Assembly (NCBI GenBank): GCA_944381185.1
Contig: CALWKE010000002.1
Span: forward strand, 2,050 to 66,049
From: an uncultured Clostridia bacterium
GTDB lineage: Bacteria > Bacillota > Clostridia > Christensenellales > UBA1242
Direction of reading: 5' to 3'
Length of the DNA stretch: 64,000 nucleotides
In this document: one piece after another, positions 13,380 through 38,600 of the stretch
How the letters are laid out: each line of letters starts with the position of its first letter
Numbering within the stretch: the first letter of the stretch is position 1
Translations under genes and position numbers: made by a program
The notes under the pieces: generated by a model
What the model saw: the letters and a program-made list of their open reading frames with translations, nothing else
The model's database searches: none
What the model was told of the DNA's origin: nothing

Positions 13380-13454
13380 GGTGGGCGATCAGGGACTCGA
13401 ACCCTGGACCTTATGATTAAGAGTCATCTGCTCTACCAACTGAGCTAATCGCCC
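13379..13454 (-). tRNA. tRNA-Lys (anticodon CUU)
   Basis: The reverse complement GGGCGATTAGCTCAGTTGGTAGAGCAGATGACTCTTAATCATAAGGTCCAGGGTTCGAGTCCCTGATCGCCCACCA folds as a cloverleaf. It has a 7-bp acceptor stem, GCTC/GAGC D stem, CTCTTAA anticodon loop, GGTTCGAGTCC T arm and an encoded CCA. Confidence 0.93.
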
Positions 13455-30176: not shown

Positions 30177-30470
30177 ATGAAAAATAAAATTGTTACAATC
30201 TGTGGAAGTATGAAATTTCAAAAAGATATGATTGATGTTGCTTCAAAATTAGAAAAAGAATATGGCTGGTGTGTTATTCAATGCGTTTATAATTTAGGCA
30301 AAAATTTATCTGACAAAGAAATGGAAAATATTAAAAAGGCACATTTTCAGAAAATTGATATCAGTGATGCCATTTTTGTTTTAAATATTGGTGGATATAT
30401 TGGTGAGTCAACTAAAAATGAAATTGAATATGCAAAAAAATTAAATAAAGAAATTATTTATTTTGAGTAA
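30177..30470 (+). CDS. small nucleoside 2-deoxyribosyltransferase-like (Rossmann-like) protein, unknown function
   Basis: 97 aa. The N-terminal IVTICGSMKF and C-terminal ..ISDAIFVLNIGGYIGESTKNEIEYAKKLNKEIIYF resemble the NDT-like superfamily pattern. Family assignment is by eye. Has its own GGAGAA SD. Confidence 0.5.
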   Translation: MKNKIVTICGSMKFQKDMIDVASKLEKEYGWCVIQCVYNLGKNLSDKEMENIKKAHFQKIDISDAIFVLNIGGYIGESTKNEIEYAKKLNKEIIYFE

Positions 30471-30909: not shown

Positions 30910-32238
30910 GTGGGATTATTTGAATCATTGGGCGAAAGATTAAATCATATATTTTCAAAACTAACCAAGCGTGGCAAACTTACAGAACTTGAAATCAAGC
31001 AGGCTATGCGTGAAGTTAGAATTGCTTTGCTTGAAGCCGATGTAAATTTTTTGGTTGCAAAAGATTTTGTGAGCAAAGTTTCAGAAAAAGCAGTCGGTGA
31101 ACAAATTTTAAATAGTTTGACTCCTGGTCAACAAGTTATTAAAATTGTTCGTGATGAACTTGTTAACCTTATGGGTGGAACGCAATCAAAACTTGAAGTT
31201 TCACCAAAGCCACCAACAGTTATTATGATGTGTGGTTTGCAGGGTGCTGGAAAAACCACAATGGCGGGAAAACTTGGTTTTATGCTTAAAAAGCAAGGCA
31301 AAAAACCTATGCTTGTTGCCTGTGATATTTATCGTCCTGCAGCAATAAACCAACTTAAAATTGGTGCTTCAAATGCTGGTGTTGATTTTTTTGAAAAGGG
31401 AACAATTAACCCTGTTAAAATTGCTGAACAAGCCGTTGAACAGGCAAAGCGTATGGGTAATGACACTGTTATTATTGATACGGCGGGTCGTCTTCAAATC
31501 AATGAAGAGCTCATGAAGGAACTTGAAAATATCAAGAAGGCTGTTAATCCAACTGAAATACTTCTTACTATTGATGCTATGACGGGTCAAGAATCAGTTA
31601 ATGTTGCAAAAGAATTTAATGATAGGCTTGATATTACAGGCGTGATTGTAACAAAACTTGATGGTGACACTCGTGGTGGTGTGGCACTTTCAGTTAAAGC
31701 CGTCACCGGCAAACCAATTAAATTTTGCGGTGTTGGTGAAAAAATTGGTGATATTGAACCATTTTATCCTGATCGAATGGCTTCAAGAATTCTTGGTATG
31801 GGTGATGTGCTTTCACTTATTGATAAGGCACAGGCAAGCGTTGATGAAGCAGAGATGAAAAAAGTTGAAGAGAATATTCGAAAGAACACATTTTCATTTG
31901 AAGACTTTTTGATTCAGTTTGAACAAATTGGCAAAATGGGAAACATTCAAGACATAATTAGTATGATACCGGGTGCCGGAACAAAATTTAAAGCTACTGA
32001 TGTTGATGAAACAAAAATTAAAAAGTATAAGGCAATCATTCAGTCAATGACCAAAAAAGAAAGGCTTAACCCAGACCTTATAAAAGCAAGCAATCGAAAA
32101 CGAATTGCAGAGGGAAGTGCAACAACAATTCAAGATGTTAATGCTTTAATTAAGCAATTTGAACAAACCAAACAGATGATGAAGAATATGAATAGTGGAA
32201 AACTTCAAAAGATGCTCGGACGAAATTTTAAATTTTAA
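30910..32238 (+). CDS. ffh: signal recognition particle protein Ffh
   Basis: GLFESLGERL.. N-terminus, GLQGAGKTT, DTAGR and TKLDGDTRGG motifs, and a Met-rich M domain. GTG 30910 lies 6 nt after AGGAGG. The track ORF starts at 30871. Confidence 0.95.
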   Translation: MGLFESLGERLNHIFSKLTKRGKLTELEIKQAMREVRIALLEADVNFLVAKDFVSKVSEKAVGEQILNSLTPGQQVIKIVRDELVNLMGGTQSKLEVSPKPPTVIMMCGLQGAGKTTMAGKLGFMLKKQGKKPMLVACDIYRPAAINQLKIGASNAGVDFFEKGTINPVKIAEQAVEQAKRMGNDTVIIDTAGRLQINEELMKELENIKKAVNPTEILLTIDAMTGQESVNVAKEFNDRLDITGVIVTKLDGDTRGGVALSVKAVTGKPIKFCGVGEKIGDIEPFYPDRMASRILGMGDVLSLIDKAQASVDEAEMKKVEENIRKNTFSFEDFLIQFEQIGKMGNIQDIISMIPGAGTKFKATDVDETKIKKYKAIIQSMTKKERLNPDLIKASNRKRIAEGSATTIQDVNALIKQFEQTKQMMKNMNSGKLQKMLGRNFKF

Positions 32239-32292
32239 TTAGTATCTATCAGCTTTTGCTGTGATGATAAATTCAAATCGGAGGAAAAAGAA

Positions 32293-32556
32293 ATGGCAGT
32301 TAAAATGAGACTTACAAGATTAGGTGATAAAAAGAGCCCTTTTTATCGAATTGTAGTGGCAGATTCAAGAGTTGCAAGAGATGCAAAATATATTGATCTT
32401 ATCGGAACTTATAACCCACTTACAAATCCAGAAGAAATCAAAATTGATGTCGAAAAGGCTAATAAATGGATTAGCAATGGTGCTCAACCAACTGAAACAG
32501 TTAAGGCTCTTTTAGTTAAAGCAGGTGCAACCAAAGCTGACAAGAAGTCTAAATAA
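32293..32556 (+). CDS. rpsP: 30S ribosomal protein S16
   Basis: [26 protein letters not shown].. is the canonical S16 N-terminus. Confidence 0.96.
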
Positions 32557-32574
32557 TAAATTTGGCAGGTGCTT

Positions 32575-32805
32575 ATGAAAGAGTTAGTTGAATTTATTGT
32601 TAAAAATCTTGTTTCTGACCCTGAAAATGTGATAGTTACTGAAACTGTTAATGACAGGGAAACAGTTTACACTGTTAAAGTTCCAGAAGAAGATTTTGGT
32701 AAGATTATTGGAAGAAGTGGAAAGATTGCAACCGCTATTAGAACAGTGGTTAGAACATCAGCAAAAAAACAAAACAAACATGTTTTTGTTAAATTTGAAA
32801 AGTAA
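32575..32805 (+). CDS. KH domain RNA-binding protein (YlqC family)
   Basis: MKELVEFIVKNLV.. and the GKIIGRSGKIATAIRTVV GxxG KH motif. Conserved partner of rpsP. Confidence 0.9.
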   Translation: MKELVEFIVKNLVSDPENVIVTETVNDRETVYTVKVPEEDFGKIIGRSGKIATAIRTVVRTSAKKQNKHVFVKFEK

Positions 32806-32826
32806 GGCTATTGCCTTATTTTTTTT
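32804..32826 (+). terminator. terminator of the ffh-rpsP-KH operon
   Basis: AAGGC-TATT-GCCTT followed by ATTTTTTTT. Overlaps the KH gene stop codon. Confidence 0.7.
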
Positions 32827-32828
32827 GT

Positions 32829-32860
32829 AAAAAAAGCAGTGAAAATTCACTGCTTTTTAT
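32829..32860. terminator. bidirectional terminator, serves the minus-strand mTERF-like cassette
   Basis: AAAAAAA-GCAGTGA-AAAT-TCACTGC-TTTTTATTTT. Lies directly 3' of the minus-strand gene ending at 32862. Confidence 0.8.
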
Positions 32861-32861
32861 T

Positions 32862-33155
32862 TTAAATTAAAAATGGGTCGTTTTTAAGTGCTTGTTCAAT
32901 ATCATCATATTCATTTGCAAGTTTTTTCAAATCATTTTTAAGTTCTTCTGAATTTCGACATAAAAAACCCGGATTCATCGCAATAATATAAGTTAAATCA
33001 TCAACAGGATACCCAAATGAAATTAGTATGTTAAGGTTTTCAGATGCTTCATCAACTGAAAGTTCTTCAAGTACGGGTGATTGTTCAACTAATGTTTCAA
33101 TTTCTCCGTCATCAAATTTTAATTCTTTAAAAAAGTTATATAAAAGTTTATCCAT
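32862..33155 (-). CDS. small mTERF-like helical repeat protein
   Basis: 98 aa from ATG 33155, with AAGGAG 8 nt upstream. The track start 33233 would overlap the upstream gene. Contains two motif copies of type ..GEIETLVEQSPVLEELS.. / ..FGYPVDDLTYIIAMNPGFLCRNSEEL... Confidence 0.7.
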   Translation of the reverse strand: MDKLLYNFFKELKFDDGEIETLVEQSPVLEELSVDEASENLNILISFGYPVDDLTYIIAMNPGFLCRNSEELKNDLKKLANEYDDIEQALKNDPFLI

Positions 33156-33165
33156 ATTATTCTCC

Positions 33166-34386
33166 TTAATCTTTTTGAAGAGGTGGCTCAATTTTGAGCG
33201 AACTATAAGTTTCATAAATTTGATCGATTGCATTTTCGTTAAGTGGATATAACTTCATTAGGTCGTTACTAGTTGCTTTGAATTGTCTTTTAAATTCTGG
33301 TTCAGATTCATCAAGTTGCCTTGGGGTTGAATTTAATCCTAAATCATGTTTAATATACATATATCTTGCATAAATTTTTTCAGGACTAGTTACAAACCAA
33401 CCATTAATTTTCATATATGATTTATCTGGAAACATTGTTGCCCAAAGTGCATATTTTATTTTTAGATCAGCAGTTGGGCACATTAAAATTCGTGGATTAT
33501 TTTGGATATCAGCAAGTGTTATTCCAATTTCATTTAAAATTGTTAGTTTTTTTATTACAGATTTTGGATTTTCGCTGTTTTCATCACAATCAAGACCAAG
33601 AAGGGTAGGAAACTTTTGAAGATTTTCATTGGTTAACCCCAATATTTCCTTATAAAACTTAATTTTTCTTATAACTGAAGTTTTATTTTTTTCGTTGTAT
33701 GTGTCATAGCAAAGTAGGGTAGGAAATTGTTGAAATTGTTTGTTAGTAAACCCAAGTGTATCTTTATAAAATTTGATTTTTGCTCGTATTGATGTTGGAA
33801 CGCCTTCATCAGAAGAACAATCAGATGTTAAAAGGTTTGGCAAAATTTGAAATTGCTTATTAGTAAACCCAAGGGTATCTTTATAAAATTTGATTTTAGA
33901 CCTTATTGATGTTGGGTTATTTATATCTTCTAAAATGCAATCGTAACTTAAAAGAGAAGGGGTTGTTTTTAATTGTTTGTTAGTAAAACCAAGTTCAGTT
34001 TTAAAAAATTTCACTTTGGCTTGTATTGATGTTGGGTTTTCTTCAGGGCTTGAAAATGTGTCACTTGTGATTATATTTGGTATTTTTTGAAATTGCTTTT
34101 TTGTGAAGCCAAGTTCGGTTTTATAATATTCAATTCTCTTATTTGCAGAAGATGGTTTTTCACTTAATTCTAAAACAAGCAATGTGAAATAATTTAAAAT
34201 TTGATCAAGTGAAAGGCCAACTTCGTTTTTGTAAAAATCAATTTTATCAAGCCACATTTGTTTACTTTGATTGAGTATTGCGTGAAAAGAACTTTTTTCA
34301 ATTTTGCTGTAATAATATTCGGCTTGTTCATCAGTTAATTTTAATGTGTTAATTAAAAAATCTTTTGTGATTTGAATTTTTGCCAT
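33166..34386 (-). CDS. mTERF-like helical repeat protein (about 7 tandem ~38-aa repeats)
   Basis: 406 aa. Repeats have the form PTSIRAKIKFYKDTLGFTNKQFQxxPxLLxxD, matching the mTERF motif pattern (Lys/Pro-x-hydrophobic-x-F-L-x-x-LG-F/L-S/T-x-x-x-hydrophobic-x-x-x-P-x-L-L). Confidence 0.75.
   Translation of the reverse strand: MAKIQITKDFLINTLKLTDEQAEYYYSKIEKSSFHAILNQSKQMWLDKIDFYKNEVGLSLDQILNYFTLLVLELSEKPSSANKRIEYYKTELGFTKKQFQKIPNIITSDTFSSPEENPTSIQAKVKFFKTELGFTNKQLKTTPSLLSYDCILEDINNPTSIRSKIKFYKDTLGFTNKQFQILPNLLTSDCSSDEGVPTSIRAKIKFYKDTLGFTNKQFQQFPTLLCYDTYNEKNKTSVIRKIKFYKEILGLTNENLQKFPTLLGLDCDENSENPKSVIKKLTILNEIGITLADIQNNPRILMCPTADLKIKYALWATMFPDKSYMKINGWFVTSPEKIYARYMYIKHDLGLNSTPRQLDESEPEFKRQFKATSNDLMKLYPLNENAIDQIYETYSSLKIEPPLQKD
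33560..34145 (-). repeat. intragenic tandem repeat, period about 114-117 bp, about 5 copies
   Basis: The near-identical core TTAGTAAACCCAAG(T/G)GTATCTTTATAAAATTTGATTTT recurs about 117 bp apart on the + strand (near 33743 and 33860). More diverged copies flank it. This encodes the protein repeats of the 406-aa gene. Confidence 0.75.
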
Positions 34387-34531
34387 TTTAAAAACTCCCC
34401 ATATATCGTTATTATATCATAATTATTTAAAATTTTCAATAGATATATAAAAATATATTATTGTTTTAAAATATTGCTATTTTTTTGACATTGTGATATA
34501 TTTTGTATGTAAAAATTTTAAGGAAGAATTT

Positions 34532-36274
34532 ATGGAAAAGATTACTATAAATAAATACAGAAATATTGATAATGGAAGTTTAAGACTATCTGATGCTGGA
34601 AAAACTGTAAAACTTGCTGGTTGGGTTGATTCAATTCGTAAACTTGGCGGAGTTACATTTGTTGTTCTTCGTGACCAATATGGGAAAACTCAAGTCGTTC
34701 TTCGTGATGAATTTGTTGAACTTAATAAAGAAGATGTTATTTCAGTTGAAGGAAAGGTTGTTGAGCGTGAAAGTAAAAACTTAAATATGCCAACAGGTGA
34801 AGTTGAGGTTGTTGCAGAAAAAATTGAAATGCTTGGCAAGTGCACAAAAACACTTCCTTTTGAAATTAAAAATAGCCAGAGTGTTGCTGAAGATATAAGG
34901 CTTAAATATAGATATCTCGACCTTAGAGCAGAGTATAACCAAAAGATGCTTAAACTTCGAAGTGATTTGCTTTTGTTTGTTCGCGAATATATGAATTCAC
35001 AAAATTTTACCGAAGTTCAAACACCAATTCTTACTTCTTCAAGCCCAGAGGGTGCAAGAGATTATCTTGTTCCAAGCAGGCTTAATCCCGGAAAATTTTA
35101 TGCTCTTCCACAGGCTCCACAGCAATTTAAGCAACTTTTGATGGTGTCGGGAATTGACAGGTATTTTCAAATTGCTCCATGTTTTAGAGATGAAGATGCA
35201 AGGGCAGACCGAAGCCCTACCGAATTTTATCAAATTGATATGGAAATGGCTTTTGCAACACAAGAAGATGTGTTTGAGGTTATGGAAGGGCTTTACAGGG
35301 CAGTGTTTAAAAAGTTTGCTAATTTTGAAATAGGCGAATTTAAACGAATAAAATATGCTGATGCCATTCGTGACTATTGTTCTGATAAGCCAGACCTTCG
35401 AAATCCTCTTAAAGTTGTTGATGTTACAGATATTTTTAAAAATACTTCATTTAGTGTTTTTCAAGGTAAAACAATTAAGTGTATAAGGGCACATACCAAT
35501 GAAAAACCAAGAAAGTGGTATGACAAGTTAACCGAATTTTTAAAATCAAGAGAAGCAAAGGGACTTGCGTATTTTGTTGTAAACGACGGCGATGAACTTT
35601 CAGGCGGAATTTCAAAATTTGTAACTGAAAGTGAAAAGGCTGACATTAAAAAACTTGTTGGATTTGAAAAAGGCGACACACTTTTCTTTGTTGCAGACGA
35701 GAGAGATAAAGCCATTAAATATACAAACGTTCTTCGCAATGAACTTGGAAAAGAACTTGAACTTATTGATGAAAATGATTATAAGTTCTGTTGGATTGTT
35801 GATTTTCCATTTTTTGAAAAAGACGATGACGGAAATATTGCGTTTGCACACAATCCTTTTTCACTTCCACAATGCTCACTTGAAGAGATAAAAAAAGACC
35901 CATTTAATGCACTTGCTTATCAATATGACCTTGTTATTAATGGTTATGAAAGTTTGTCGGGTGCTGTTCGAAACCATGACCAAAACATGATGGTTGAACT
36001 CTTTAAACTTGCAGGCTATAACAAAGAAGTTGTTGAAAACAAATTTCCAGCACTTTATAATGCGTTTTCGTATGGTGCACCACCACATGCTGGTTGTGCT
36101 CCGGGTTTTGATAGGCTTATGATGCTTTTAACTCATAATGATTTCATTCGTGATGTCTATGCCTTTCCAATGAACAAAAATGGGCAAGACCCACTTTGCA
36201 ATGCACCAAACACAGTTGATGAAAAACTGCTTCGTGATGTGCATATCAAAATTATTGAAGAAGATTTAAAATAA
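34532..36274 (+). CDS. aspS: aspartate--tRNA ligase
   Basis: Class II motifs FRDEDARADRSPTEFYQIDMEMAF and GAPPHAGCAPGFDRLMML, with an N-terminal OB fold. ATG is residue 14 of the track ORF, after AAGGAAG. Confidence 0.95.
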   Translation: MEKITINKYRNIDNGSLRLSDAGKTVKLAGWVDSIRKLGGVTFVVLRDQYGKTQVVLRDEFVELNKEDVISVEGKVVERESKNLNMPTGEVEVVAEKIEMLGKCTKTLPFEIKNSQSVAEDIRLKYRYLDLRAEYNQKMLKLRSDLLLFVREYMNSQNFTEVQTPILTSSSPEGARDYLVPSRLNPGKFYALPQAPQQFKQLLMVSGIDRYFQIAPCFRDEDARADRSPTEFYQIDMEMAFATQEDVFEVMEGLYRAVFKKFANFEIGEFKRIKYADAIRDYCSDKPDLRNPLKVVDVTDIFKNTSFSVFQGKTIKCIRAHTNEKPRKWYDKLTEFLKSREAKGLAYFVVNDGDELSGGISKFVTESEKADIKKLVGFEKGDTLFFVADERDKAIKYTNVLRNELGKELELIDENDYKFCWIVDFPFFEKDDDGNIAFAHNPFSLPQCSLEEIKKDPFNALAYQYDLVINGYESLSGAVRNHDQNMMVELFKLAGYNKEVVENKFPALYNAFSYGAPPHAGCAPGFDRLMMLLTHNDFIRDVYAFPMNKNGQDPLCNAPNTVDEKLLRDVHIKIIEEDLK

Positions 36275-36283
36275 TAAAAATAT

Positions 36284-36311
36284 AACTTCTTGGGTGTCCA
36301 AGAAGTTTTTT
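36284..36311 (+). terminator. rho-independent terminator after aspS
   Basis: AACTTCTTGG-GTGT-CCAAGAAGTT followed by TTTT: a 10-bp perfect stem. Confidence 0.85.
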
Positions 36312-36352
36312 AGTTTACAGAATTTTATTTTCTGTGATATAATTTTTATGTT

Positions 36353-36925
36353 ATGAGTATTAACTATATTTTATCGCAACTGTTTGTTATTTTTCACTAT
36401 GTTATGCTCGGTGCAACATATCTTATAATCAGCAGAAAAAAGATATTAATTTTTAGTTTGATATCACTTTTGTTAAATGGTGTTTCATTTATATTTTTAT
36501 CGGCATGGTCTGGGCTTGCAACAGTTGGTATTGCTGTGACAAGAAATATTATATTTTTAATTCAAAATAAAAATAGAAAGGTTGATGAACAAAATACAAT
36601 AACTTGGGTTGATTGGCTGATATTGATAGTGTTGTTTGTGATTTCAATAATACTTGCAATATTTACTTATAATGGAATATTCAGTTTGCTTTCGGTTGTT
36701 GCGACAATGGTTTACACGGTTTCAGTTTGGCATAAAGATGTCAAAGTTTATGGAATTTTAGGCGTTGTTGCAAGTGCCCTTTGGATTGGATATTATATAT
36801 TTATAAACTCTATTTTTGCGGTGTTATTAGAGTCGGTTGTTCTTGTTGTTGAGATTATTTCAGTGATAAAAAATTATAAGAACAAAAAATTGAACTTAAC
36901 TGGAGATAGTTATGGAAAAAGTTAG
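36353..36925 (+). CDS. integral membrane protein (YgjV-like)
   Basis: 190 aa, 5-6 TM segments. Overall pattern resembles the YgjV inner-membrane family; assignment is by eye. Confidence 0.5.
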   Translation: MSINYILSQLFVIFHYVMLGATYLIISRKKILIFSLISLLLNGVSFIFLSAWSGLATVGIAVTRNIIFLIQNKNRKVDEQNTITWVDWLILIVLFVISIILAIFTYNGIFSLLSVVATMVYTVSVWHKDVKVYGILGVVASALWIGYYIFINSIFAVLLESVVLVVEIISVIKNYKNKKLNLTGDSYGKS

Positions 36926-37409
36926 TTTTGGCAAGGTTGTAAAAATTCACGGAATTGCAGGCGGAATGAAGGTTGCAACCAAATATGATAGAGATTTTGA
37001 TATTCAAAAAGTTGATTTTGTTTTTGACGAAAATGATAATAAATTTAAAGTTAATAGGATTTTTCAAACAAATGATGGTGTTGTTGTGATTTTAGATGGA
37101 GTTGATATAAACAAAGCACGAACATTTATTGGAAGATATTTTTATATTGACAGAAATTTGGTTGCTGATAAAATTTTGATTGAAGACTTAAAAAATTCTG
37201 TTGTGGTTTTTGATGACGGCGAAGTCTTTGGAAAAATCACTGATGTCCAAGACTATGGCAGTGCCGAAGTTTTTTATTTGAAAGATGATAATGGTAAAGA
37301 ATTTATGTTTCCAAATGTTGTTGGACTTATTAAGTCTTTTGATTATAAAGAAAAAAGGCTCGTTATAGATAAGCAAAAATTAAAAGAGGTCTGCGATTAT
37401 GAGGATTGA
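36912..37409 (+). CDS. rimM: 16S rRNA processing protein RimM
   Basis: ..GKVVKIHGIAGGMKV.. N-terminal barrel and a PRC-barrel C-terminus. Immediately upstream of and overlapping trmD. Confidence 0.9.
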   Translation: MEKVSFGKVVKIHGIAGGMKVATKYDRDFDIQKVDFVFDENDNKFKVNRIFQTNDGVVVILDGVDINKARTFIGRYFYIDRNLVADKILIEDLKNSVVVFDDGEVFGKITDVQDYGSAEVFYLKDDNGKEFMFPNVVGLIKSFDYKEKRLVIDKQKLKEVCDYED

Positions 37410-38076
37410 TATTTTAACACTTTTTCCGGAAATGTTTGCACCAATAAAAGAAAGTATTTTGAAGCGTGGGGCAGAGAGTGGAAAACTTGAAATAAATATA
37501 ATTAATATTCGTGACTACTCTAAAGACAAACACAAAAAATGTGATGACTATACCTTTGGTGGTGGACCGGGAATGCTTATGATGCCACAGCCGATTTATG
37601 ATGCAATAACAAGCATTGATGGCTACAAAGATGCACGCAAAATCTACCTTAGCCCAAAGGGAAAAATTTTTAATCAAAAAATGGCAAGCGAGTTATCAAA
37701 AAATAACCATATAATACTTTTATGCGGGCACTATGAAGGCGTTGACCAAAGGGTTATTGATTTGCTTATTGATGAAGAAATTTCTGTTGGTGATTATGTG
37801 CTTACTGGTGGTGAACTTCCAGCGATGATTATTGTTGATGCAGTTTCAAGATTAATACCCGGAGTTTTAGGGGGAGAATTATCTGCTGAAATTGAAACTT
37901 TTTCAGACGGACTACTAGAATATCCACAATACACAAAGCCAAGAGAATTTATGGGACTTGAAGTTCCTGAAGTATTGCTTTCAGGCAATCACCAAAAAAT
38001 TGATGAGTGGAGAAAACAAAAGTCATTAGAACTTACAAAAAATAATAGACCAGATTTGTTAGATAAAAATAATTAG
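37399..38076 (+). CDS. trmD: tRNA (guanine37-N1)-methyltransferase TrmD
   Basis: MRIDILTLFPEMF.., ..DYTFGGGPGMLM.. and ..LLCGHYEGVDQRV.. are TrmD signature blocks. Confidence 0.96.
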   Translation: MRIDILTLFPEMFAPIKESILKRGAESGKLEINIINIRDYSKDKHKKCDDYTFGGGPGMLMMPQPIYDAITSIDGYKDARKIYLSPKGKIFNQKMASELSKNNHIILLCGHYEGVDQRVIDLLIDEEISVGDYVLTGGELPAMIIVDAVSRLIPGVLGGELSAEIETFSDGLLEYPQYTKPREFMGLEVPEVLLSGNHQKIDEWRKQKSLELTKNNRPDLLDKNN

Positions 38077-38108: not shown

Positions 38109-38600
38109 ATGAAAAAGCATATTGAATTTAAAAAATTAGTTAAAATTAACAAAAAAACATTCAATAAAATTGTTAAATGGCTTTTTGATTGGTGGGGTAA
38201 AAAGCGTGGATATTCTCTTGAACAAATGAATTGTTATGTTGAACATAGTTTAAACGAAGATAAATTGCCAATAATATACGGATTATTTTTGGATGGTGAG
38301 ATAATTGGAATGTATCAATTTGTTTATAGTGATTTTGAAATCAGACCAGACATCTATCCATGGCTTGCAAATGTTTATATTGATGAAAAATATCGTGGTA
38401 AAGGATATGGAAGAAATTTACTTGAACAAGTTAAAGATACTGCACAAAAAGATATATCATTTAATGAACTTTTTCTGTATACCAAACATAATGGGTTATA
38501 TGAAAAATTTGGTTTTGAATTTGTTCAAGATTTTGATACATTTTCAAAAGAACCGAGAATTCAAAGACTTTATAAAATGAATTTAAAAAAGTGGGAATAA
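38109..38600 (+). CDS. GNAT family N-acetyltransferase
   Basis: Acetyl-CoA motif A ..VYIDEKYRGKGYGRNLLEQV.. (Q/RxxGxG/A). 163 aa. Confidence 0.85.
   Translation: MKKHIEFKKLVKINKKTFNKIVKWLFDWWGKKRGYSLEQMNCYVEHSLNEDKLPIIYGLFLDGEIIGMYQFVYSDFEIRPDIYPWLANVYIDEKYRGKGYGRNLLEQVKDTAQKDISFNELFLYTKHNGLYEKFGFEFVQDFDTFSKEPRIQRLYKMNLKKWE

Follow-up and report, generated by a model that had tools for sequence, protein, structure and literature searches.

Introduction

Proteins of the mTERF family play a central part in regulating gene expression in mitochondria and chloroplasts. Does a bacterial chromosome carry genuine members of this fold, and what would they do there? The question is raised by two minus-strand genes in a 64,000-nucleotide (nt) stretch from an uncultured, low-G+C Clostridia bacterium of the gut type (contig CALWKE010000002.1; the whole stretch is called the window below). 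Gene 1 (33166-34386, 406 amino acids (aa)) and gene 2 (32862-33155, 97 aa) form a cassette that runs antisense to the surrounding housekeeping block. An original prediction, made from the raw sequence, had described the pair as mTERF-like and placed it between the rpsP-KH genes and the aspS/rimM-trmD genes, an arrangement with which the open reading frames (ORFs) and the Pfam assignments of the neighbours agree. According to reviews up to 2026, prokaryotes lack mTERF (PMC12977773). A screen for tandem-repeat proteins that bind DNA, published in Nucleic Acids Research in 2024, named 'pTERF' from Clostridia metagenome-assembled genomes (MAGs), and this single screening paper is the only one to report bacterial mTERFs, which it presents as programmable-looking DNA binders (PMC11417379).

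Here we analyzed the cassette, its relatives and its chromosomal surroundings. Sequence profiles and predicted models support an mTERF fold for both proteins. Bacterial mTERF-like proteins have been known since 2024 as pTERF (PMC11417379), and the cassette fits that kind. Undescribed so far are an acidic partner gene, a C-terminal module, and the size and fixed locus of the family. The locus puts a bacterial mTERF-like protein in a clean chromosomal context, the partner and the C-terminal module bear on how such proteins are controlled, and the family as a whole offers material for studies on possible bacterial roots of the organellar mTERF fold and on the possible engineering of pTERFs into modular DNA binders.

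Both cassette proteins are predicted to share the mTERF fold

Against Pfam, the gene 1 product scored 28.0 bits with the mTERF model (PF02536; E 1.3e-6), above the gathering cut-off of 23.1. Its relatives score 30-220 bits, with more distant members reaching 80-220. A family profile built from 24 homologues retrieved human MTERF3 (3m66) from the PDB sequences at E 3.1e-11, the next best match being a designed TPR at ~2e-3. A check for a better match to TPR, HEAT or PPR thus left mTERF ahead of designed TPR by eight orders of magnitude. The AlphaFold2 model of the gene 1 product (pLDDT 92.5, pTM 0.81) comprises about ten three-helix units, its secondary structure consisting of recurring helices of ~12, ~6 and ~5 residues (long, short and one-turn). 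When we compared this model with the PDB using Foldseek, ranks 1-6 were all taken by mTERF structures, with MTERF3 at rank 1, MTERF1 at ranks 2-4 and MTERF4 among the remainder, and a TAL effector followed at rank 7. The whole-chain TM scores to the mTERF structures are low (0.41-0.57), because repeat length and superhelical pitch differ.

The gene 2 product carries three mTERF motifs and is modelled as eight helices (pLDDT 96.2). The 97-aa protein reaches 18.6 bits with Pfam mTERF, which is below the cut-off, and nine of its 12 orthologues match the same model at E<0.01. The profile of the gene 2 family matched MTERF3 in the PDB at E 2.1e-7, along with MTERF4, mS93 and MTERF1. In the Foldseek comparison, the model aligned with 3m66 at a TM score of 0.78 (root-mean-square deviation 2.5 Å, 96 columns), and the top 15 matches were all mTERF. 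The mTERF call made from the raw sequence is therefore borne out by the Pfam score above the gathering cut-off, by the MTERF3 profile match and by the agreement between AlphaFold2 and Foldseek.

In both predicted models, two helices and a short Pro-initiated one-turn/3-10 helix stack as a superhelical solenoid. The classic mTERF repeat is ~30 aa long and often interspersed, whereas the repeats of the cassette measure 38-40 aa and are strictly tandem; this spacing is a variant feature that leaves the homology to mTERF unbroken. Unlike the nucleus-encoded, organelle-targeted mTERF proteins, both cassette proteins are encoded by chromosomal genes of a bacterium.

The large protein combines tandem repeats with a conserved C-terminal module

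The repeat region of gene 1, delineated from the sequence repeats and the AlphaFold2 secondary structure, spans aa 44-306 (33469-34257, minus strand) and is divided into R1 to R7. Five units, R2-R6 (aa 78-273), are clear tandem copies of 38-40 aa with the pattern P-T-S-x-x-x-K-h-K-F-Y-K-x-x-L-G-F-T-x-K-Q-F-x-x-x-P-x-L-L-x-x-D, and they are flanked by two degenerate copies, R1 (aa 44-77) and R7 (aa 274-306). The seven tandem repeats of about 38 aa that had been counted originally in the 406-aa protein are hence all recognizable. The repeats follow one another strictly in tandem, joined by acidic, Ser/Asp/Glu-rich linkers. Conserved positions recur in each unit, including K124, K164, K203, K241 and K280, S160, S199 and S237, as well as Thr positions. 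Orthologues of the gene 1 product have 465-496 aa, and the window protein is short of about two of their repeat units.

At the DNA level, a repeat search detected five copies of an 83-nt unit, spaced at 114, 117, 120 and 120 nt and 61-84% identical to the reference copy. R4 and R5 are the only pair with a nearly identical DNA core (~40-70 nt): within their first 69 nt, 22 consecutive nt are identical and a stretch of ~40 nt differs at 1-3 positions. The copies have diverged too far for Tandem Repeats Finder, which called no array of 114-120 nt in 32000-35000. The near-identical 40-nt cores that had been taken as a sign of recent repeat expansion or homogenization accordingly hold for R4/R5, but not for the other copies, and homogenization is confined to that one pair.

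Downstream of the repeats, conservation among family members delimits a helical C-terminal module of ~100-110 aa (aa 307-406; 33169-33468, minus strand). Across 101 divergent members, most of the near-invariant residues fall in or near this module, namely A340 and R341 (the 'YAR' motif), F365 and Y-P-L at 380-382, and the near-invariant P304 and K280 lie just upstream of it. Both the repeats and the module are present in most of the top 150 family representatives. When the module alone was compared with Pfam and PDB sequences, nothing significant emerged, the best match (E 0.067) being to a non-conserved part of RpoD. From its sequence, the YAR module is family-specific and without known relative.

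A gene for an acidic mini-mTERF usually accompanies the large gene

With a start at 33233, which lies inside gene 1, the gene 2 ORF (32862-33233) would encode 123 aa. We rejected this form in view of the ribosome-binding site and of where the homologues start. An AAGGAG ribosome-binding site, which overlaps the gene 1 stop codon, precedes the ATG at 33155; the stop codon lies 10 nt upstream of this ATG, and all gene 2 homologues begin at the equivalent Met. Gene 2 therefore almost certainly starts at ATG 33155, translationally coupled to gene 1, and its product has 97 aa, instead of the 98 aa given in the original prediction.

The gene 2 product is strongly charged, with an isoelectric point (pI) of 4.05 and a net charge of -14. 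These features are shared by its homologues, which are always acidic (pI 4.05-4.7, net charge -4 to -15), mostly 94-99 aa long, and always end exactly at the P-x-[LI]-I of the last motif. Their mean column identity amounts to 68%, as compared to 48% for the large protein. In six of nine independent genomic contexts, the small gene lies directly downstream of the large one. The six are the aspS locus, L015 and four sites that follow, respectively, mgsA in L007, a second large paralogue in L010, an Fe-ADH gene in L011 and an ABC transporter in L013/L014. The small proteins of distant contexts are 25-39% identical to the window gene 2 product, and those of its own clade 47-86%. In L010 (1266-4016), two tandem large mTERF-like paralogues of 427 and 389 aa are followed by a single 97-aa small partner, so the module can have three genes. 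In L015 (53-1874), a 481-aa large protein is followed by a 130-aa partner that has one extra repeat and itself matches Pfam mTERF. Because the pair is kept across changing neighbourhoods, there is good evidence that the large and small genes are functionally linked, and the two proteins may well interact physically.

A divergent family from uncultured genomes

To describe the family, we counted representatives clustered at 50% identity in an exhaustive hidden Markov model (HMM) search, which yielded 725 clusters at E<=1e-3, 240 at <=1e-10 and 73 at <=1e-30. A word-indexed homologue search returned 28 clusters, none of them named, and a later search of this type with a 101-sequence profile added almost nothing to the first. 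Every member comes from an uncultured genome or a metagenome. The expectation that bacterial mTERFs are at best rare is correct insofar as none is named and all are uncultured or metagenomic, but it does not fit the 725 clusters or the description of pTERF in 2024. The bacterial family is deeply divergent, with 20-30% identity, and its repeat periods are mostly 36-41 aa. Distant members adjoin sporulation genes, ribosomal protein genes, GAPDH and similar genes. The large protein of L015 belongs to a cluster of 777 member sequences on contigs of up to 730 kb, and this cluster size indicates that its organism is abundant.

A scan of genome contigs with a single protein found no loci, and an alignment-based scan found three (L001-L003), from Clostridia or Lachnospiraceae MAGs; one homologue, P0055, corresponds to MBO5103015.1 of a 'Clostridia bacterium'. 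Several relatives carry the cassette in the same place and orientation, with aspS diverging from the mTERF gene, followed by the small gene and then by the convergent KH-rpsP pair. These same-locus relatives include L016 (96% identical), L001-L006 (40-46% identity, contigs up to 189 kb) and a 47-member cluster. By gene order, the cassette locus is fixed in one clade. Compared with the 96%-identical L016, gene 1 has a dN/dS (ratio of nonsynonymous to synonymous substitution rates) of 0.17, which indicates that it is under purifying selection.

Three of the same-locus relatives differ from the window in gene content. In L004 (7798-8442), and likewise in L005 and L006 (46% identity), the cassette is separated from the KH gene by an Xre-type helix-turn-helix gene of 69 aa and a 113-aa ORF that gave no Pfam match; both are absent from the window. 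These extra genes suggest that insertions recur in the gap between aspS and rpsP-KH. Elsewhere in the family, large mTERF-like genes without a small partner lie near tRNA-modification genes: that of L009 (6195-7508) neighbours MnmE, and that of L008 (7741-8826) an MnmA-type tRNA methyltransferase, with a Zn-ribbon/TM2 protein gene in between. These neighbours may be coincidence or may hint at an RNA role. The metagenomic proteins P0182, P0193 and P0194, of 1150-1300 aa, give strong mTERF matches of up to 220 bits, and P0194 also has the bacterial-type C-terminal module.

Comparison with pTERFs and organellar mTERFs

pTERF1 (MBQ3414883.1), found in a Clostridia MAG of ruminant-gut origin, repeats with a period of 35 aa (cluster TR_35) and binds the double-stranded DNA (dsDNA) motif ACTNNNAGTC with a dissociation constant (Kd) of 1.87 nM (PMC11417379). 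pTERF2 binds a different motif, and both tested pTERFs recognize specific dsDNA with nanomolar Kd (PMC11417379). The screen listed ~46 pTERF homologues, all MAG-derived and mostly from Bacillota, with 3-11 repeats; identity to eukaryotic mTERFs is 9-18% with a similar repeat fold, and the predicted pTERF targets are enriched for RNA-metabolism Gene Ontology (GO) terms (PMC11417379). The window protein is alike in coming from uncultured Bacillota/Clostridia of gut-type metagenomes, in its contiguous three-helix repeats, in its match to Pfam mTERF and in its seven units, which lie within the 3-11 range. Judged by the published description of pTERF1, it is probably homologous to that protein. DNA binding was shown for pTERF1 and pTERF2, whereas for the window protein it is predicted by analogy.

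In the main text of the pTERF paper, the words operon, adjacent gene, genomic context and C-terminal domain do not occur (PMC11417379), and because it is silent on these points, we regard the acidic partner gene, the YAR module and the fixed aspS/rpsP locus as additions to the published picture. A search for further papers mentioning pTERF found none. Moreover, the family is much larger than reported, with 240 clusters at E<=1e-10 as opposed to ~46 homologues. The pTERF1 motif ACTNNNAGTC occurs three times in the 64-kb window against 3.28 expected matches, which is chance level; since specificity differs between pTERF members, this count is uninformative for the window protein.

Among solved structures, MTERF3 (MTERFD1; 3m66) is the best relative of both cassette proteins and holds Foldseek rank 1 for both. 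It differs in being nucleus-encoded and mitochondrial, with interspersed ~30-aa repeats, a role in mitoribosome biogenesis and transcription, and 15-22% identity, and it has neither the YAR module nor a split small subunit. MTERF1 (3n6s, 3mva) shares the repeat fold and offers a mechanistic model for sequence-specific dsDNA wrapping by an mTERF solenoid, but it flips bases via specific Arg/Phe/Tyr residues and is organellar and monomeric, with no partner gene. The MTERF4-NSUN4 complex (4fp9, 7o9k), which is among the structural matches, holds a second polypeptide near the C-terminal end of the mTERF solenoid and thus provides an earlier example of an mTERF protein that acts within an obligate pair. 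In that complex, however, the partner is an rRNA methyltransferase and not a mini-mTERF, and the ligand is rRNA. TALE/STAR proteins likewise read DNA in a modular manner with tandem helical repeats of ~33-35 aa, and a TAL effector was the first match after the mTERF structures. Their repeats, in contrast, consist of two helices and a repeat-variable di-residue (RVD) loop and are non-homologous, and no repeat-variable di-residue pattern was seen in the window protein.

A putative nucleic-acid-binding solenoid with a proposed accessory subunit

By analogy with the pTERFs, we consider it fairly probable that the cassette is a two-gene pTERF-type operon, in which the large protein would be a sequence-specific nucleic-acid binder, acting as regulator or roadblock, and the small protein an accessory subunit. 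The large protein would form a superhelical solenoid of about seven mTERF motifs plus the helical C-terminal module and bind a specific nucleic acid along its groove. To our knowledge, all characterized eukaryotic mTERFs are nucleic-acid binders, and we propose the same for the large protein because of them and because two pTERFs bind dsDNA. The conserved Lys in each repeat and the basic pI point indirectly in the same direction: the window gene 1 product has a pI of 8.71, and the large-protein family is mostly basic (median pI 8.84, 84% above 7). DNA would be the favoured ligand, as the sole one shown for bacterial mTERF-like members (PMC11417379), and the large protein would regulate transcription or serve as a roadblock. 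For its acidic partner, the most likely role would be to bind the large protein, and not nucleic acid, whereby it would cap or extend the solenoid or modulate how nucleic acid is bound.

Several observations weigh against a DNA-binding, two-subunit system. The closest orthologues of the gene 1 product are near-neutral (pI ~6-6.5), the best PDB sequence relatives, MTERF3 and MTERF4, act on rRNA and not on DNA, and the period of pTERF1 is 35 aa as compared to 38-40 aa in the window protein. As to the partner, the small gene is absent beside three other distant large genes and, as pTERF1 bound DNA alone, a partner is not needed for DNA binding in vitro. We are more doubtful of a wider generalization, in which bacterial mTERF-like proteins would constitute a two-component system with a dedicated acidic mini-mTERF partner. 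This partner could gate DNA or RNA binding as an anti-factor or by mimicking nucleic acid, occupying or capping the groove, or it could be a detachable end-module that alters the length and specificity of the solenoid. Under the same reading, the family would possibly represent an ancient bacterial lineage of the fold. If true, such a lineage would bear on the origin of organellar mTERFs.

What else could the cassette encode? The closest solved sequence relatives, MTERF3 and MTERF4 together with the mitoribosomal mS93, would fit an RNA-binding factor of ribosome or tRNA biogenesis, whose solenoid holds rRNA or tRNA for an enzyme, as in MTERF4-NSUN4, MTERF3 or plant mTERF9. In the clade, the cassette also sits among rpsP, the KhpA-type KH gene, rimM, trmD and, in L004, a GTPase gene (PF01926 MMR_HSR1); the two distant members near MnmE and the MnmA-type gene, as well as the RNA-metabolism terms among predicted pTERF targets (PMC11417379), agree with such a role. 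Yet the cassette runs antisense to the housekeeping genes, behind a promoter-like site of its own, and only a few uncultured lineages contain the family, which is not what one would expect of a core biogenesis factor. Other members lie beside ABC transporter, Fe-ADH, GAPDH, mgsA and M20 peptidase genes, and given such unrelated neighbourhoods of distant members, the link to ribosome biogenesis that had been drawn from the surroundings is weak. The only experiments on bacterial mTERF-like proteins, moreover, show sequence-specific dsDNA binding (PMC11417379), and we regard an RNA role, although it is the main rival, as rather unlikely. Still less probable is a protein-protein scaffold, in which the mTERF-like fold would have no nucleic-acid ligand and the large and small subunits would form a helical recruiting array. 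Helical solenoids often bind proteins, the pI of the closest orthologues is near neutral, both the linkers and the small subunit are acidic, and the near-invariant residues concentrate in the C-terminal module and not in the repeats. Against a scaffold stand the conserved Lys, Ser and Thr positions in each repeat, the mostly basic charge of the wider family and the fact that every characterized protein of the mTERF fold, including the two bacterial ones tested in PMC11417379, binds nucleic acid.

Two further explanations concern where the genes come from and whether the fold is assigned correctly. That mTERF is overwhelmingly eukaryotic, with reviews stating its absence from prokaryotes (PMC12977773), might suggest a recent transfer from a eukaryote, such as a gut plant, alga or protist, or a chimeric or contaminated assembly. 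The G+C content of the cassette (0.27-0.30) is slightly lower than that of its flanks, and a diatom mTERF protein is among the weak matches. The cassette, however, has bacterial promoter, ribosome-binding-site and terminator signals and translational coupling, and the same insertion occurs in many independent assemblies, including the relatives at 40-46% identity and the 47-member cluster. Its family, at 20-30% identity, has its own C-terminal module and partner gene, which are not shared by module-less matches such as P0106, P0126 and P0182. Eukaryotic contamination or recent transfer is thus very unlikely. We give even less credence to another helical-repeat class (TPR, HEAT, PPR or TALE-like), with the mTERF match arising as a composition or repeat artefact. 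The designed TPRs in the profile search, the TAL effector at Foldseek rank 7 and the repeat length of 38-40 aa instead of the classic ~30 aa could be cited in its favour, but in the profile search mTERF is ahead by eight orders of magnitude, and it occupies all Foldseek ranks 1-6 (large protein) and 1-15 (small protein), and draws 145-220 bits from relatives on the Pfam model. The unit of three helices (long, short and Pro-initiated one-turn) also differs from the two-helix TPR, PPR and HEAT repeats.

Chromosomal context and expression signals

According to Pfam, the genes around the cassette encode, in order, YlxM, Ffh, S16 and a KhpA-type KH protein on one side and AspRS, YgjV, RimM, TrmD and a GNAT protein on the other; SMC and FtsY genes are found in the wider flanks within the window. 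Such housekeeping surroundings are typical of Firmicutes. The plus-strand rpsP (S16, 32293-32556) and KH (32569-32805) genes are convergent with the cassette, and aspS, the ygjV-like membrane protein gene, rimM and trmD (34493-38076, plus strand) are divergent from it. Between the KH gene and gene 2, a bidirectional intrinsic-terminator-like hairpin at 32831-32858 (12-bp stem, A-run on one side, T-run on the other) is common to both convergent genes. On the aspS side there is no terminator; a divergent promoter region is common to gene 1 and aspS instead. Of the terminators that had been said to bracket the cassette, only the hairpin on the KH side was recovered. On the minus strand, the best-scoring promoter-like site of the region lies at 34411-34439, ending 25 nt 5' of the gene 1 ATG (TTGAAA-17 nt-TATAAT with a TG-extended -10, 11 of 12 consensus positions matched). 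This candidate was identified by its consensus match only, and a TGnTATAAT element is also found upstream of the cassette in relatives. It is followed by a GGGGAG ribosome-binding site, read from the sequence at 34395-34400, 8 nt before the ATG. Together with the hairpin and the dN/dS of gene 1, these signals mark the pair as real genes that look expressed. An alignment of the divergent regions between aspS and the mTERF gene from six loci, made in search of a conserved operator, showed only promoter-like elements in common.

Additional annotation searches gave little. NCBIfam returned only noise for the cassette proteins, PADLOC no match, and PHROGs one weak match to a function-unknown family (phrog_20440, E 1e-4). 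With PADLOC empty and the PHROGs match weak, a defence or phage cassette is without support. A scan of the whole 64-kb window with Rfam gave a single match, a tRNA gene at 13382-13454 on the minus strand, and upstream of aspS neither a T-box nor any other leader was detected.

The aspS ORF is listed with a GTG start at 34493, corresponding to 593 aa. As the orthologues have 577-580 aa (580 aa in L016), the true start is likely ATG 34532, giving a 580-aa product and a divergent intergenic region of 145 bp, like that of L016. Between ftsY and ylxM, on the housekeeping strand, lies a further 97-aa ORF (30177-30470) with no Pfam match, whose sequence is unrelated to the mini-mTERF of the same length. 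Many Firmicutes carry rplS after trmD; in the window, trmD is directly followed by a GNAT acetyltransferase gene (38109-38600). In addition, aspS and the ygjV-like membrane gene separate rpsP-KH from rimM-trmD, indicating that the classic operon is rearranged in this lineage.

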